Shown here in pieces: positions 5,947 to 63,952 of a stretch of DNA of 64,000 bases (position 1 is the stretch's first letter; each line of letters begins with the position of its first letter). Origin of the DNA: Reclinomonas americana ATCC 50394 (taxonomy: Eukaryota); contig PS015081.1 of the NCBI GenBank assembly GCA_048213135.1, positions 106,785 through 170,784 of the forward strand, read 5' to 3'. A model generated the notes under the pieces. That model had not been told where the DNA came from, did no database searches, and saw only the letters and a program-made list of their open reading frames with translations. A program made the position numbers and the translations under genes.

Positions 5947-6444
5947 ATGCAAGTCGACAGACCTGTCTCTGGCAGTGCATCAGCAGCAGCACCACCACTG
6001 CGCCTAACAGTGGCCGATGTGAGCTTTGCAGGTGATGCAGCCACCTTGTACCAGTTGCTGTACAGTCTGGAGGATGATCCTCGCGCACGTGAGACACTAG
6101 AGAAGACGGTGTGTGTGTGTGAGAGAGAGAGAGAGTGTGTGTGTGTGTATGTGTTGCTAATCGACCCGTGACACCCTGTGCAGTACAGCGAGATCAAGGC
6201 GAAGATTACGCGATTCAAGGCCGCGATTCAAGAGCTCCCTGAGCTGTCGTTTATGGAGCAGAAGCAGCAGCATGAGGCCAAGCGGAGGCAACTGGAGGAG
6301 AAGCTGTTGCGTGCACGTGCATGTGTGTGATGGATTGCGACGCTCACTGTCACTGGCATACACAGAGCGCTCATTCGACAGCTGACCACTGGTGGCATGC
6401 AGGTCGTGCAGCAGTTGCAGGATCTGAGTCCTGAGAAAGAATGA
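5947..6444 (+). CDS. Small coiled-coil protein, Mediator subunit 9-like (3 exons)
   Basis: ..LEKT|YSEIKAKITRFKAAIQELPELSFMEQKQQHEAKRRQLEEKL|ALIRQL..EKE*. The helix-LP-x5-EQ-coiled-coil layout resembles Med9. The gene is well supported; the family is tentative. Confidence 0.45.
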
Positions 6445-6524
6445 AACCTCGTCTTCGTTGTCTTCGTTGCTGTCACATCGTCCCACTTGTTTTGTTGACG
6501 ATAGAGAGAGCAAGGAGAGAGAGA

Positions 6525-8469
6525 ATGATGAACTGGTGGGCGACTCGTGTGCGTCCGCTGGTGGTCAGTGCTGCGGTCGCTGGTCTGGCTGCGTCGTTTG
6601 TGACCAGTTCCATTGCGTTTCCCGTGTGGGTGCGTGCATTGTATGCATCTCTCTTCCTCGACTCTGGTCAACGTGTTCAGCAGCGTCGCTCTTGTTCTCT
6701 CCGTGGCATATCTCACTCTACCTGTGCATTGCCACGCGATCGCATTCCTGTCGCACCCCTGCTGGTGATGCTCCGTCCTTGCCTCTGCATTGTCACGTCT
6801 CCTCACTCCTCTCAAGCTCCGCCTTCGTCTCTCTCTCTCTTCTCTTCTCTTCTCTCTCTCTCTCTCCTCTCTCTTCATGGTGGTGGCTCTTCGTAGTCGC
6901 GAGATCCTCCTCCTCTTGTGCTCCGTCGCTGCCTTCCTCTGCATCACCGCACGATCTCATCCCCCCTCGCTGCATCCCAGGTCAACACCAAGTGCATGGA
7001 ACCGACCATCCAACGCGACGGCGAGCTCCTCATCGCCAAAGTCGCCGCCCCACTCAGCCTTCGCTTCGGTGCGTCTTTGTTTCCCTTTCCCCGCATTGCG
7101 TTCTGTCTCACATCCACCCCANNNNNNNNNNNNNNNNNNNNNNNNNNNNNNNNNNNNNNNNNNNNNNNNNNNNNNNNNNNNNNNNNNNNNNNNNNNNNNN
7201 NNNNNNNNNNNNNNNNNNNNNNNNNNNNNNNNNNNNNNNNNNNNNNNNNNNNNNNNNNNNNNNNNNNNNNNNNNNNNNNNNNNNNNNNNNNNNNNNNNNN
7301 NNNNNNNNNNNNNNNNNNNNNNNNNNNNNNNNNNNNNNNNNNNNNNNNNNNNNNNNNNNNNNNNNNNNNNNNNNNNNNNNNNNNNNNNNNNNNNNNNNNN
7401 NNNNNNNNNNNNNNNNNNNNNNNNNNNNNNNNNNNNNNNNNNNNNNNNNNNNNNNNNNNNNNNNNNNNNNNNNNNNNNNNNNNNNNNNNNNNNNNNNNNN
7501 NNNNNNNNNNNNNNNNNNNNNNNNNNNNNNNNNNNNNNNNNNNNNNNNNNNNNNNNNNNNNNNNNNNNNNNNNNNNNNNNNNNNNNNNNNNNNNNNNNNN
7601 NNNNNNNNNNNNNNNNNNNNNNNNNNNNNNNNNNNNNNNNNNNNNNNNNNNNNNNNNNNNNNNNNNNNNNNNNNNNNNNNNNNNNNNNNNNNNNNNNNNN
7701 NNNNNNNNNNNNNNNNNNNNNNNNNNNNNNNNNNNNNNNNNNNNNNNNNNNNNNNNNNNNNNNNNNNNNNNNNNNNNNNNNNNNNNNNNNNNNNNNNNNN
7801 NNNNNNNNNNNNNNNNNNNNNNNNNNNNNNNNNNNNNNNNNNNNNNNNNNNNNNNNNNNNNNNNNNNNNNNNNNNNNNNNNNNNNNNNNNNNNNNNNNNN
7901 NNNNNNNNNNNNNNNNNNNNNNNNNNNNNNNNNNNNNNNNNNNNNNNNNNNNNNNNNNNNNNNNNNNNNNNNNNNNNNNNNNNNNNNNNNNNNNNNNNNN
8001 NNNNNNNNNNNNNNNNNNNNNNNNNNNNNNNNNNNNNNNNNNNNNNNNNNNNNNNNNNNNNNNNNNNNNNNNNNNGGCGACATTGTCGTGTGTCGGAGTT
8101 TCGGCCCCAGCACAGGTTTGATTGCCGTTCTCCTCTCTCTCTCTGCTCTCTACTCTCTTCCCCGACTCACTCCACGCGGCGCGCAGAGGGACCGAACTGG
8201 ACGCTGGCTAGAATAGTTGGCTTGCCTGGCGATGAATGCAACGGTGTGACGGTCCCTCGCGGCCACGTGTACTTGCTCGGTGACAACACCAGGGTGGCAC
8301 ACGATTCGCGACATGTTGGTGAGTGCCGTCGCTTGCTTTCGCAGTTGATGGCCCGTCGTGTGACGCCAAGCGTGTGCATGCAGGTCCTCTTCCCATGGGC
8401 ATGGTACAGGGCGTGGTGGTGTTCCGACTATGGCCATTCAGTCGTGCTGGGAGCATGTCATCGCGGTAA
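6525..8469 (+). CDS. Peptidase S26 / mitochondrial inner-membrane peptidase (IMP1/2-like) homologue with substituted catalytic residues
   Basis: N-terminal TM segment, then VNTKCMEPT, GDIVV, LARIVGLPGD, VPRGHVYLLGDN, HDSRHVGPLP and RLWPF, which are the S26 box motifs. Interrupted by N gap 7122-8075. Confidence 0.8.
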
Positions 8470-60982: not shown

Positions 60983-62580
60983 CTATCGCACCGCACTGCG
61001 TATCAATGCTGGTGGACGCAAGCCGGCCAGGCGCTGATTGATTCCCTCTTCGTGGACAGCGGCAAAGCGCACACGTCCTCGGCTTGCAGGCACCTCTGCA
61101 GAGGCAAGGAGTGTGAGGAGCAGCAAGTACAAGAAGAGAGGGGGAAGAGGAAAGGTGACACACCTGGCGGTGATCGCTCAACCGCGGATGGCGACAAGTT
61201 CAACGAACGGAAGGCCTCCATGTCGCCGATGAAAATGTGGTGCGGTGCCGAAGGTACAGAGCCCTCCATTCTGCGCTGCAGGGTGAGCTATGCAGATAGA
61301 GGGACAAGCGGAAGAAGAATCGGTGCGCAACAAGGGTGAGATGGCGCCCTGCTGTCGCCTTCTGAGCATGACAATCGCCGTGTCGGCCTGCTTGACCGCG
61401 TGCTGTGAGGGTGGGCATGTGAGATCTAGACGTAGTGGGCGGGGCACAAGCAACCAGGTGCGCCACCTACCACATGTGTTTGCACTGCTGGTGCGCGACC
61501 AGCACCGCCAATCAGCAGCAGCGACGACAGCTGCTGTTGTTGTTGTTGCTGTTGCTGTAATGAGGCCGGTGAGCTCATGGCCAGCCTGCGCACCAGCGGC
61601 ACTGGTGAGGCAGAGGAGCGTCGCTGGCGCTGTGCTGCGGGCGGTGCGAGCGTCGCTGGTGTGGCAGTGGTGGCAGCAGCGGCGGCGGGGATCACTGGTG
61701 AGCTCGCCGACACCACCGGCGACGGCGGCGACGACACGCGCGGACTCGGACTCCCCATGGCGTCCACACTCGCACTGGTTGCAGCACCGTCGGTGGCCAC
61801 CGGCGACGAGGGCGACACAAGAATCGGTCGCGACCGGCTCGGCGGAGTCGGCGACAACGAGTACGAGCGCGAACCACCAGCGCGGAGGATTGGCGTTGCC
61901 AGCACCGGCTGTCGCTCCAATGCCGACAGCCGCTGCCGCTGCTCATCATACACGATATGAACAGCACCAATCGACGGGGTCTTTCTGTGTCGCGGCCGCT
62001 GCGATGACGACGGCGGCGGCTGCTGCGGCTGCTGCTGTTCCTCGTCGACCTCCCACGCCTGCGGCCATGAATCCGGACGCTCGTCCGCATTCGATTTCCC
62101 TCCTCCGGATCCTCGCGACCTCATCCATATACGTGCCGCATTGCTGGCCGCAGCAGCCGACACCTGTGTGTCAGTGAGTGAGTGATAAGAGATTGTGCGA
62201 CGAGGGACCGAACGAACCGCCCGCGGCTTCGAATCAAGGCCGCCACTATCGGCGCCCACACTCGGCAGTCGCTGCACGTGGTGATTCACCGGGGTCAACA
62301 CACTGGCCGACGATAGTCTCCGCCTGTTGAGAGTACGTGAGTGAGTGAGTGTGAGAGCAACACGCAATGTATATGCGACGTAACGATGAGGGCTGGACGC
62401 GCGGAGCAGGCCCCACTCCCGACGCCGATGGCAGTGACGATAATGATGCTGGTGAGGGTGGTTCAATGGGTGGCACAGTGACCACACGACGCGAAAGCTG
62501 TGCCAGTGAGAGTGAGTGTGAGTGTGAGAACTCATTTCCCGCACCCTGACATACTCGACGAGTCGCACAAACCGAGGCAT
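60983..62580 (-). CDS. Uncharacterised Ser/Pro/Arg-rich disordered protein
   Basis: Long open frame 61426-62805 with GT-AG introns. Contains HRKTPS and a C-terminal RVRF motif. Both ends are approximate. Confidence 0.45.
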
Positions 62581-62725
62581 TGTTGAGCAGCACGCGCTGT
62601 GCGCCGGCACTGGCCGAGTTGCTGCGCTGCATGTGTGTCGTGGTGGCCTCCACGCGCGCTGAGTTGATCGTTTTCTTTTGTGTTTGGTGTCACGTGGGTG
62701 CATCATTGAGTCGGTGCAGGGCCAT

Positions 62726-63952
62726 TCATTCGCCACTCGTTTTTCGCGCAAAAGACAGCGTCTGTTGCAAACCGCTGTCGAGATCCCATTTCGGTTGCCA
62801 GCCACATGAGAGGAGACGATGCACGCAGGCCATGGAGTGTTTTACGTCACCCGGACGCGCGTCCGCGTGTACAATGGTGCTGGACGAGGGGTTCGTGATT
62901 GGTTGGTAATCAAATCGCACGCCGGTTTGTGTGTGTCACACGCGATTCAGCTCACCTTGCGGACGACAGTGCGCCAATGATGCGCGCCGCCAGCTGGTTG
63001 ATGGTGATGGACTGGCCGTAGCCGACATTGTAGACGCCGGGCGGCACGCAGTCGCCGTGCAGCGCCACATAAACATTGGCCTGCTTGCGCGCGCGTGAGC
63101 GAGACATGCTGCGCGTGGCACCACGACCATCGAGGACGCAACGCTGGCCACATCGCGCACATACACAAAGTCACGCGTCTGTTCGCCGTCGCCAAACACG
63201 GAGATGGGCTCGTTCGCCAGCGCACGCTGCACAAAGAGCGGAATCGCCGCCGCATACGCCGAGTGCGGGTTCTGTCGCTCGCCAAACACATTAAAGTAGC
63301 GCAGACACACGGCCGTCATCGTCGATCCGCTGGCGTCGGCCGCCGAGAACAGCTTCAGTGCGTAGAACTCGCCATCGAATTTGGAGAGTGCGTACGGACT
63401 GGCACCGCGAAAGGCCGCGTCCTCGGTCCACCCATCGACGCCCATGAACGAGTCGTCGCCACCATAAATGGCCGCCGTCGACGACAGCACCACTCGCTGC
63501 ACGGTGCCACATCGTCGACACGCCTCCAGCAGCGTCAACGTGCCCAACGAGTTCTGCTTCACATACTCTGCACGCGAAACAAAAAAGGCTCGGCGAGCGA
63601 AGGCAGGTGACTGTTGGCGATGCAGGCAAGGCACGAAACTGGCCGGATCGCTCATGCTCTCAGGCACCGAGATGGCCGCTGCAAGTCACACGGTCACTCC
63701 CAATACATCGCTTTTGCAAGACGGTCGCTCACTGACTGACCTGCAGTGTGAAACACAAAATGCACGCCATCGCGCAACGCCGCCTCCACATCCCCCGCCA
63801 CTGTCACATCACCCTTGATGAACTCCACTCGCTCCTTTGACAGAGTGAGTGAGACACACTCTGTCGCGATGCGATCGGGAGAATACACACCATCACATGC
63901 GCGAGGTTATCCAAGCTACCCGTCGACAAGTCATCCAACACACGTACTCTAT
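62726..63952 (-). CDS. NAD-dependent epimerase/dehydratase (UDP-glucose/GlcNAc 4-epimerase, WbpP/GalE-like extended SDR); 5' end lies beyond the window
   Basis: VLDDLSTG, FHTA|AISVPESMSDP, SSTAAIYG, SPYALSK (YxxxK), LRYFNVFGERQNP, FGDGEQTRDFVYV, RPGDVKHS. Confidence 0.92.

Follow-up and report, generated by a model that had tools for sequence, protein, structure and literature searches.

A second class of 5' splice sites, offset by one base, in a 64-kb window of Reclinomonas americana

Human 5' splice sites of the shifted kind, as treated by Roca and Krainer in 2009, reportedly number about 60. Both +1 shifted and bulged registers of pairing with U1 small nuclear RNA (snRNA) are established for rare human 5' splice sites (available part of PMC4856993). 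Donor sequences also vary between lineages: the accessible portion of a comparative preprint describes GUUUGU(U) donors with the U1 sequence AACAAAC in Entamoeba, GUGCGC donors with a U1 candidate ACGUAC in Mastigamoeba, and +4C donors with a standard U1 in Thecamonas and Mamiellales (bioRxiv 10.1101/2022.06.08.495308). Here we describe the introns of one 64-kb window of Reclinomonas americana ATCC 50394, the whole stretch of DNA that was analysed and to which all counts refer. Beside the standard donors, the window holds a second class that begins with GTT and carries its conserved downstream G one base deeper in the intron. The class is real, as shown in this one window, and the statistics of its sequences support the reading that it is recognized in a shifted register.

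Donor classes and the last exon base

We sorted the 129 confidently modelled introns by the position of the conserved donor G. Class I has G at +5 (80 introns), class II has T at +3 together with G at +6 (GTT-N-N-G; 38 introns) and 11 belong to neither. A first-pass annotation, made from the sequence alone, had proposed that GTTGCG(T) donors form a second major class used almost exclusively where the exon does not end in G. Our census bears this out: class II accounts for 38/129 confident introns, 28 of the 38 being GTTGCG, and its last exon base is A in 19, T in 10, C in 8 and G in 1 (1/38), as compared with -1G in 61/80 class I introns (Fisher 2e-15). The contrast is also seen for the 28 GTTGCG donors alone (A12, T8, C7, G1), with -1G in 66 of the other 101 introns (Fisher 1.4e-9), and across all 169 modelled introns, with -1G in 1/50 class II versus 75/104 class I. 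Counted from the exon side, a non-G end is followed by class II in 37/62 introns and by class I in 19, and a G end is followed by class II in 1/67. Ten class II introns start with GTTTCGT, GTTACGT or GTTGTGT, which correspond to the class I donors GTTCGT, GTACGT and GTGTGT plus one T; none of the ten follows G. Because donors that start with GTT have -1G in 9/10 cases with +5G but in 1/38 with +6G (p 6e-8), it is the register of the downstream G, and not +3T itself, that goes with the -1 base.

The two classes superpose when slid by one base, as the first-pass annotation had noted by aligning G/GTGCGT with GTTGCGT. The class II -1 position has the composition of class I -2 (chi-square p 0.12) and is unlike class I -1 (p 3e-13); class II +4G (30/38) matches class I +3G (62/80), and class II +7T (29/38) matches class I +6T (61/80). 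A is enriched at class II -1 (19/38 vs 20% background, p 4e-5). The one clear difference is the C, present in 36/38 class II donors (+5) versus 31/80 at the corresponding class I position (p 2e-9). Intron phases 0/1/2 also differ, with 43/25/12 in class I and 11/11/16 in class II (p 0.003), the outcome to be expected were the class of an intron dictated by what coding allows at the final base of the exon.

The standard donor is more varied than the G/GTGCG(T) first proposed as the common form (a slash marks the exon-intron boundary), which is a simplification: the 129 confident introns include GTGCGT 17 times, GTGTGT 16, GTGAGT 14 and GTGCGC 7. Class I donors after a non-G base (n = 19; examples at 26692, 27398, 29520, 42646 and 58310) read GTGCGT in 37% and have +6T in 89%, versus 16% and 72% after G (n = 61). 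This stronger intron consensus at class I donors without -1G is the usual compensation between exon and intron. A separate small group, G/GTGACG(T/C) at 26875, 49936 and 58670 (+), has the conserved G at +6 with G rather than T at +3; the donor at 26875 is placed by 14/14 alignments of molybdenum-cofactor sulfurase (MOCOS) homologues. Since the +3G of these donors cannot pair in a shifted register and 3/3 keep -1G, they resemble true +3 bulge sites and are distinct from class II.

GTTGCG occurs 96 times in the window on both strands, and GTTGCGT 42 times versus about 9 expected from a rough hand estimate of base composition. Of the 33 sites listed in the first-pass annotation, all carry the motif and 31 have the exact position; two are one base off, 34050 being 34051 and 45465 being 45464. 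The -1 base is A, C or T at 31/31 listed GTTGCG sites, and the annotation had correctly set apart G/GTTGCGT at 33379 and A/GTTTCGT at 12836. Our gene models use 31/33 listed sites as donors (23 confident, 8 predicted); they lack 38039, whose intron enters the N gap at 38119-38138, and 45464, which is not predicted. They contain 38 GTTGCG donors altogether, 8 of them beyond that list (32069, 33945, 36176, 38143, 48814, 52071 and 58171 on the + strand, 9329 on the - strand). These 38 donors have -1G once and +7T in 31, and the 58 other GTTGCG copies have -1G in 9 and +7T in 11. Even when the window was parsed without any donor model, GTTGCG was already the top donor hexamer (7/95).

The window is about 57% GC (gaps excluded), very intron-rich and broken by 11 N gaps in the draft. 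Its own annotated proteins were not found in the protein collection that we searched, in which the closest relatives reached 77% (part of a 42-aa exon), 76% (enolase) and 65% (Sec13). Named enolase matches came from Heterolobosea at 61-66%, which we do not take as a placement. A metagenome scan with a Sec13 exon found no close relative, the best of the 80 loci kept, mostly transcript-sized contigs, having 63% identity. The intron set was built within this analysis. Homologues were aligned with a protein-to-genome aligner that uses only GT/GC...AG and BLOSUM62 and has no donor profile, and is thus blind to the motif; the sets comprised 20 proteins for Sec13, 14 for MOCOS, 14 for enolase and, for the G-alpha subunit, one related transcript-derived protein (P0001). 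The remaining introns come from a gene finder, an exon-chain dynamic program with a codon model bootstrapped from window open reading frames (ORFs) and introns of 40-300 nt. It scores donors on intron bases +3 to +9 and never on exon bases, uses a branch and acceptor profile on the 3' side, allows no GC donors and grades its calls as confident (n = 129) or predicted. This version replaced earlier ones that let long introns swallow exons and over-split genes. It recovered 31/36 donors fixed by homology, and 25/28 of its confident calls inside those regions were right.

Cleavage points and the class II introns

Genes identified in the window encode Sec13, enolase, MOCOS, a G-alpha subunit, a CRAL-TRIO protein, Sec15, an NAD-dependent epimerase, a CDK-like kinase, a kinesin, WD40 proteins, a protein with a GPS motif and a large repetitive surface-type protein. 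In three of them conserved residues place the cut at the GT, as the first-pass annotation had argued: the motif-blind alignments start introns exactly on GTTGCG in Sec13, MOCOS and G-alpha. Such alignments or Pfam coordinates fix 10 class II starts, and among majority-supported junctions alone -1G is found in 0/10 class II versus 13/16 other donors (Fisher 1.1e-4). In G-alpha, the PF00503 coordinates of separately translated exons run gap-free over three GTTGCG introns (144-184, 187-217, 219-249 and 252-279), the missing positions being explained by the last full codon and split codons. Sec13 also has standard donors at 12141 (G/GTGAGT, 17/20 alignments) and 13139 (G/GTTTGCC, 20/20), and MOCOS has nine other donors beside its class II ones in the 14 homologue alignments. 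All eight enolase introns (14 homologues) have -1G and start with GTGCG, GTACG or GTGTG. Per-exon Pfam scans confirmed the CRAL-TRIO, epimerase and Sec15 genes and fixed no additional class II junction by residue. Sec13 further contains a GC-AG intron, cag/GCGAGC...CAG at 12364-12431 (+), picked by 20/20 homologue alignments.

Apart from the donor, class II introns look like their neighbours. All 50 modelled class II introns are GT-AG, and removal of the 10 fixed by homology restores the conserved frame. Median length is 68 versus 68.5 nt between the classes and GC content is the same; branch score (5.75 vs 5.7), branch distance (19.5 vs 21) and CAG acceptors (34/38 vs 71/80; 105/118 together) agree between class II and class I, respectively. 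A CTCAC-type branch motif, found in 35/100 intron tails versus 8.8 expected, is common to both, and the classes are mixed inside the same genes. Introns of the window are in general very uniform, with a median of 68 nt and a CTCAC/CTGAC/CTCAT branch-like motif about 12-27 nt upstream of the 3' end.

Given the same length, branch and acceptor in both classes, class II introns are neither minor-spliceosome introns nor introner copies. For U12-type introns, which we rejected, the donor would be RTATCCTT and the branch TCCTTRAY, and class II has GTT[GTA][CT]G and a CTCAC-type branch. Introner-like copies were rejected on the share of intron pairs with an internal 10-mer in common (10/703 in class II vs 50/3160 in class I), and no pair of upstream exon flanks is at least 70% identical. 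Entamoeba-type GUUUGU donors were set aside because class II has +5C in 36/38 introns and coexists with class I. Class II also differs from bulged-register sites, which should keep the -1G preference, with -1G in 1/38 versus 61/80 in class I.

The class II introns and the two unmodelled motif sites are listed below with strand, last exon base and donor; confident and predicted are gene-finder grades.

6306..6365 (+), class II intron T/GTTGCGTG, 60 nt; gene model confident
9268..9329 (-), class II intron T/GTTGCGTC, 62 nt; gene model confident; absent from the first-pass list
10000..10057 (-), class II intron T/GTTGAGTG, 58 nt; gene model, predicted only
11954..12024 (+), Sec13 class II intron C/GTTGCGCG (DMI/HDAQ); 18/20 homologue spliced alignments
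12522..12594 (+), Sec13 class II intron C/GTTGCGTA; 17/20 alignments
12706..12774 (+), Sec13 class II intron C/GTTGCGTA; 16/20 alignments
12836..12893 (+), Sec13 class II intron A/GTTTCGTT; 16/20 alignments
17013..17081 (-), class II intron T/GTTGCGTC in the tail of the kinase gene; gene model, predicted only
21903..21976 (+), class II intron A/GTTGTGTA; gene model confident
22318..22380 (+), class II intron A/GTTGCGGC; gene model confident
25837..25903 (+), MOCOS class II intron C/GTTGCGCT; 12/14 homologue alignments
26196..26262 (+), MOCOS class II intron A/GTTGCGTG; 4/14 alignments only (variable region), gene model confident
26479..26539 (+), MOCOS class II intron A/GTTGTGTC; gene model confident, homologue alignments ambiguous
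27255..27319 (+), MOCOS class II intron A/GTTGCGTG (LR/TGCFC); 14/14 alignments
29251..29318 (-), G-alpha class II intron A/GTTGCGTG; spliced alignment of P0001
29610..29690 (-), G-alpha class II intron C/GTTGCGTG; PF00503 contiguity and P0001
29790..29857 (-), G-alpha class II intron A/GTTGCGTA (SE/YDQ); PF00503 contiguity and P0001
29954..30033 (-), G-alpha class II intron A/GTTGCGCC; PF00503 contiguity and P0001
30163..30222 (-), G-alpha class II intron A/GTTGCGTG (DSAAY); gene model confident, sequence read
30752..30829 (-), G-alpha class II intron T/GTTGCGTA; gene model, predicted; sequence read
32069..32160 (+), class II intron A/GTTGCGGC; gene model confident
32950..33020 (+), class II intron C/GTTGCGTA; gene model confident
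33379..33444 (+), the sole G/GTTGCGTG intron; gene model confident (model alone)
33945..34013 (+), class II intron A/GTTGCGGT; gene model confident
34051..34125 (+), class II intron A/GTTGCGTC, first listed as 34050; gene model confident
34729..34826 (+), class II intron T/GTTGCGTC; gene model, predicted; weak branch score
35285..35348 (+), class II intron T/GTTGCGTC; gene model confident
35735..35797 (+), class II intron C/GTTGAGTA; gene model, predicted
36176..36245 (+), class II intron C/GTTGCGTC; gene model, predicted
36921..37004 (+), class II intron C/GTTGCGTC; gene model, predicted
38039..38045 (+), T/GTTGCGT donor motif; motif present, absent from models, intron enters N gap 38119-38138
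38143..38236 (+), class II intron T/GTTGCGTT, adjoining the N gap; gene model, predicted
38540..38616 (+), class II intron C/GTTGCGTT; gene model confident
41871..41934 (+), class II intron T/GTTGCGTG; gene model, predicted
42242..42312 (+), class II intron A/GTTTCGTA; gene model confident
45464..45470 (+), A/GTTGCGT motif, first listed as 45465; motif present, not predicted as a donor
48814..48886 (+), CRAL-TRIO class II intron T/GTTGCGTC; gene model confident
48968..49037 (+), CRAL-TRIO class II intron A/GTTACGAG; gene model confident
49132..49204 (+), CRAL-TRIO class II intron T/GTTGCGTG; gene model confident, flanking exon matches CRAL_TRIO_N
49864..49926 (+), CRAL-TRIO class II intron T/GTTGCGTG; gene model confident, last residue of the upstream exon is PF00650 position 118, downstream exon uncertain
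50131..50204 (+), class II intron T/GTTGCGTC; gene model confident
51182..51252 (+), class II intron A/GTTTCGCG; gene model confident
51833..51916 (+), class II intron T/GTTACGTC; gene model confident
52071..52131 (+), class II intron T/GTTGCGTC; gene model confident
55707..55759 (-), class II intron T/GTTTCGTC; gene model confident
55941..55996 (-), class II intron A/GTTGCGTT; gene model confident
56398..56479 (+), class II intron A/GTTGCGAT; gene model confident
58171..58236 (+), Sec15 class II intron T/GTTGCGTA; gene model, predicted
60728..60793 (+), Sec15 class II intron A/GTTGCGTG; gene model confident, upstream exon matches Sec15_C
62324..62384 (-), class II intron C/GTTACGTC; gene model confident
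63081..63142 (-), epimerase class II intron C/GTTGCGTC; gene model confident, upstream exon PF01370 87-218
63568..63639 (-), epimerase class II intron A/GTTTCGTG; gene model confident

Between 36617 and 38861 (+), a run of exons of about 100 aa forms a repeated domain that ends in ...F.F.V and has no Pfam match; the neighbouring repeat exons 37738-38037 and 38239-38538 (+) are nearly identical. Since each unit closes with a class II donor, there are paralogous copies among the class II introns; the confident set includes just one intron of this run.

Several other features of these genes deserve record. The enolase gene has an N-terminal extension exon at 22556-22654 (+), with about 33 aa aligned at 48% identity and common to its closest relative (P0002); a 242-nt intron separates it from the catalytic part, and it has no Pfam match. 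The C-terminal half of the CDK-like kinase gene, at 17084-18480 (-), is a long glutamine-rich CAG-repeat region, whose antisense strand holds long poly-leucine ORFs that the gene finder at first mistook for genes. In a large serine/alanine-rich gene, the exon at 43667-43999 (+) contains a GPS (G-protein-coupled receptor (GPCR) proteolysis site) motif, PF01825 (E 3e-9), which suggests by sequence an adhesion-GPCR-like or polycystin-like surface protein.

Register of the donor signal and its possible reader

Our preferred reading, to which we give a probability of roughly 55%, is that class II introns are ordinary major-spliceosome GT-AG introns with the 5' recognition signal placed one base deeper in the intron. 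Class I would then read G/GU-(G/A)-(C/U/A)-G-U and class II H/GU-U-(G/U/A)-(C/U)-G-U, and the U-G-C-G-U block would be read alike in both, most likely by the 5' end of U1. The canonical U1 5' end is ACUUACCU; the U1 of this organism would have G where the canonical one has U5, letting C pair. The C is nearly invariant in class II, which would be natural for a handicapped register that depends on all its remaining pairs, and this suggests G at the facing position of the reader; a G at position 5 is reported for the Mastigamoeba U1 candidate (bioRxiv 10.1101/2022.06.08.495308). In class II, the intron +1G would fill the slot taken in class I by the exon -1G, the exon -1 base would move to the -2 slot and +2U would lie unpaired opposite the next U1 base. 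Since U1 designates the region without setting the cleavage point, the only GU would still be cut on its 5' side. The last base of the exon, set by the coding sequence, would decide the form, with G leading to class I and A, C or T mostly to class II. We infer U1, and later U6, as the reader, along with the G5 change and the unpaired +2U.

We modelled these pairings as nearest-neighbour duplexes in ViennaRNA with assumed U1 5' ends. With the assumed G5 U1, class II folds in exactly the shifted register at -6.6 kcal/mol. The idea that +1G substitutes for a missing -1G, put forward in the first-pass annotation, is upheld in part: the flanking profiles superpose, but with one U1 the modelled pairing of class II falls short of that of class I for every -1 base.

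Several observations count against a shifted register read by a single U1. All the evidence comes from one 64-kb window, and about three-quarters of the census are our own gene models, whose donor model was trained iteratively. Measured against a neutral background (G before G, 19.7%), the -1G depletion of 1/38 has p 0.004, and most of the -1 contrast arises from -1G enrichment in class I. Canonical U1 is predicted to bind class II at only -1.4 kcal/mol. After a non-G exon end, the assumed G5 U1 binds class II (-6.6) less tightly than class I (-8.3), although class II is the commoner of the two there, by 37 to 19. With the same U1, G/GUUGCGU, at -11.0 in a bulged register, is more stable than A/GUUGCGU, so U1 pairing energy gives no reason for -1G to be so scarce. 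On these modelled energies, pairing with one U1 accounts neither for the preference of non-G exon ends for class II nor for the shortage of -1G. With +5C in 36/38 introns, class II would also forgo the +5G pairing that U6 normally makes, unless U6 shifts as well or a base is bulged. Finally, Rfam found no U1, U6 or U5 gene in the 64-kb window (no snRNA family reached gathering thresholds, and ARAGORN found no tRNA), and U1 as the reader of the signal is thus inferred.

A possible but doubtful alternative invokes two U1 species. Beside the main U1 there would be a paralogue with a single changed 5'-end base (the one facing +2U; A for C in class I numbering) that matches GUUGCGU perfectly and handles class II, and introns would evolve toward whichever U1 binds better given the last base of their exon. 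The class II heptamer is nearly invariant (+4G, +5C and +7T at the frequencies given above), as for a perfect-match target. A hypothetical A8 variant would bind class II at -12.9, beating class I without -1G on the main U1 (-8.3 to -10.3), and class I with -1G would bind best on the main U1 (-14.8 to -16.8); this model reproduces the exon-dependent choice, whereas a single U1 does not. Altered U1 5' ends that match atypical donors are reported from Entamoeba and Mastigamoeba, as far as the available text of bioRxiv 10.1101/2022.06.08.495308 goes. The variant is nevertheless purely hypothetical, with no snRNA gene in the window, and G/GUUGCGU is modelled at -12.3, so energy alone still leaves the avoidance of -1G unexplained. 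The looser class II forms (GTTTCGT, GTTACGT and GTTGTGT; 10/38) parallel class I variation, which one reader fits equally well. Extended to the whole machinery, this would mean two recognition systems side by side, a main U1 and a paralogue one base different, with the exon's last base deciding between them and U6 or the catalytic core tolerating a 1-nt longer spacer and +5C in about 30% of introns; we consider that combination improbable.

The first-pass annotation had allowed for a shifted or a bulged register, and our data favour the shift. Were U1 (and U6) to pair in the normal frame, with +1G opposite C8 and one U (+2 or +3) bulged, the -1 base would face C9 and -1G should be favoured as in class I; it is not, and class II -1 instead resembles class I -2 in its enrichment for A. 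For human 5' splice sites, registers with a one-nucleotide bulge have been validated in the part of PMC4856993 available to us, ViennaRNA picks the bulged register for G/GUUGCGU, and the G/GTGACG donors (3/3 with -1G) make it probable that bulges are tolerated in this organism. Class II itself lacks the -1G preference that a bulge would preserve, and we consider a bulged register very unlikely for it. We give equally little credence to a historical by-product, in which class II arose from class I by one-base indels or boundary sliding, persists since a strong intronic block suffices, and has a -1 base that reflects the former -2. The composition at class II -1 is statistically the same as at class I -2, and gain or loss of an intronic T interconverts the forms with the reading frame untouched; a one-base slide of the boundary, however, shifts the frame unless the acceptor moves too. 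That the C hardly varies and that class II prevails by 37 to 19 after non-G indicate selection rather than tolerance, and the phase difference between the classes is what coding constraints on -1 would produce if they drive the choice. An artefactual origin, through chance clusters of the motif, faulty gene models or a spurious T from sequencing, is close to refuted. Our first gene models were noisy, missing exons and placing two wrong 43-nt introns in enolase, and the draft has its N gaps, but 10 sites are fixed by motif-blind alignments and Pfam coordinates, an extra T in G/GTGCGT would keep a -1G that is not seen, +7T is in 31/38 donor copies versus 11/58 non-donor copies, and GTTGCG led the donor hexamers even without a donor model.

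Comparison with known donor systems

Outside a small group of atypical human splice sites, shifted U1 pairing is not known to occur; those sites showed that U1 picks out a region and that the cleavage position is settled afterwards. If a shifted register is correct for class II, about three in ten introns, and about two-thirds of those after a non-G exon end, would use a layout that is rare in humans, amounting to a natural large-scale experiment in which the introns carry C in place of the almost universal +5G. Such introns would make it possible to ask how cleavage is positioned without relying on U1, how U6 deals with a pairing partner that has moved, and how the coding demands on the final base of an exon mould intron signals. 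Annotation tools that use a single trained donor profile would smear out or overlook a third of this lineage's donors. A changed U1 5' end is a further prediction of the pattern. Our literature search for a GTTGCG or GTT-shifted donor class, which did not extend to figure logos and supplements, found no description.

The layout proposed for class II is that of human shifted sites, in which +1G takes the -1G slot, all U1 pairs move by one position and the cut is at GU; the 'Shifted +1' oligonucleotide in the available part of PMC4856993 has the same layout as H/GUUGCGU. Human shifted sites are rare and atypical and pair with canonical U1 through AAGU, whereas here the class comprises 38/129 introns, has its own near-invariant heptamer with +5C, is chosen by the exon's last base and, in our duplex model, cannot pair with canonical U1. 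With the human bulged and asymmetric-loop registers described in that part of PMC4856993, class II shares a non-canonical spacing from GU to the downstream paired block. A human bulge keeps -1 opposite C9, unlike class II with its single -1G, and just the three G/GTGACG donors fit a bulge.

The +4C of class I (GTGCGT/GTGCGC) is not new: the accessible text of bioRxiv 10.1101/2022.06.08.495308 already reports it from Mastigamoeba, Thecamonas and Mamiellales. Here it would be accounted for by G at position 5 of U1. By that text, Archamoebae set the precedent that the U1 5' end can change. It presents one consensus per genome for Archamoebae, Thecamonas and Mamiellales, in the canonical register and with +5G kept, and the part available mentions no second shifted class. 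Entamoeba-like G/GTTTGT and G/GTTTGC donors of our window (6/129) keep -1G and +5G and therefore belong to class I, and the window does not match the genome statistics given for Mastigamoeba in the available part of PMC8136499 (GC 60.7%, 3.4 introns per gene, 137 bp). The left- and right-handed sites of LUC7 (PMC11842720) and the U5-type and U6-type sites (PMC11732430) show, in the portions available to us, the same trade-off between pairing on the exon side, with -1G, and pairing on the intron side. Those classes share one register, whereas in R. americana the intron-side block is displaced by one nucleotide.

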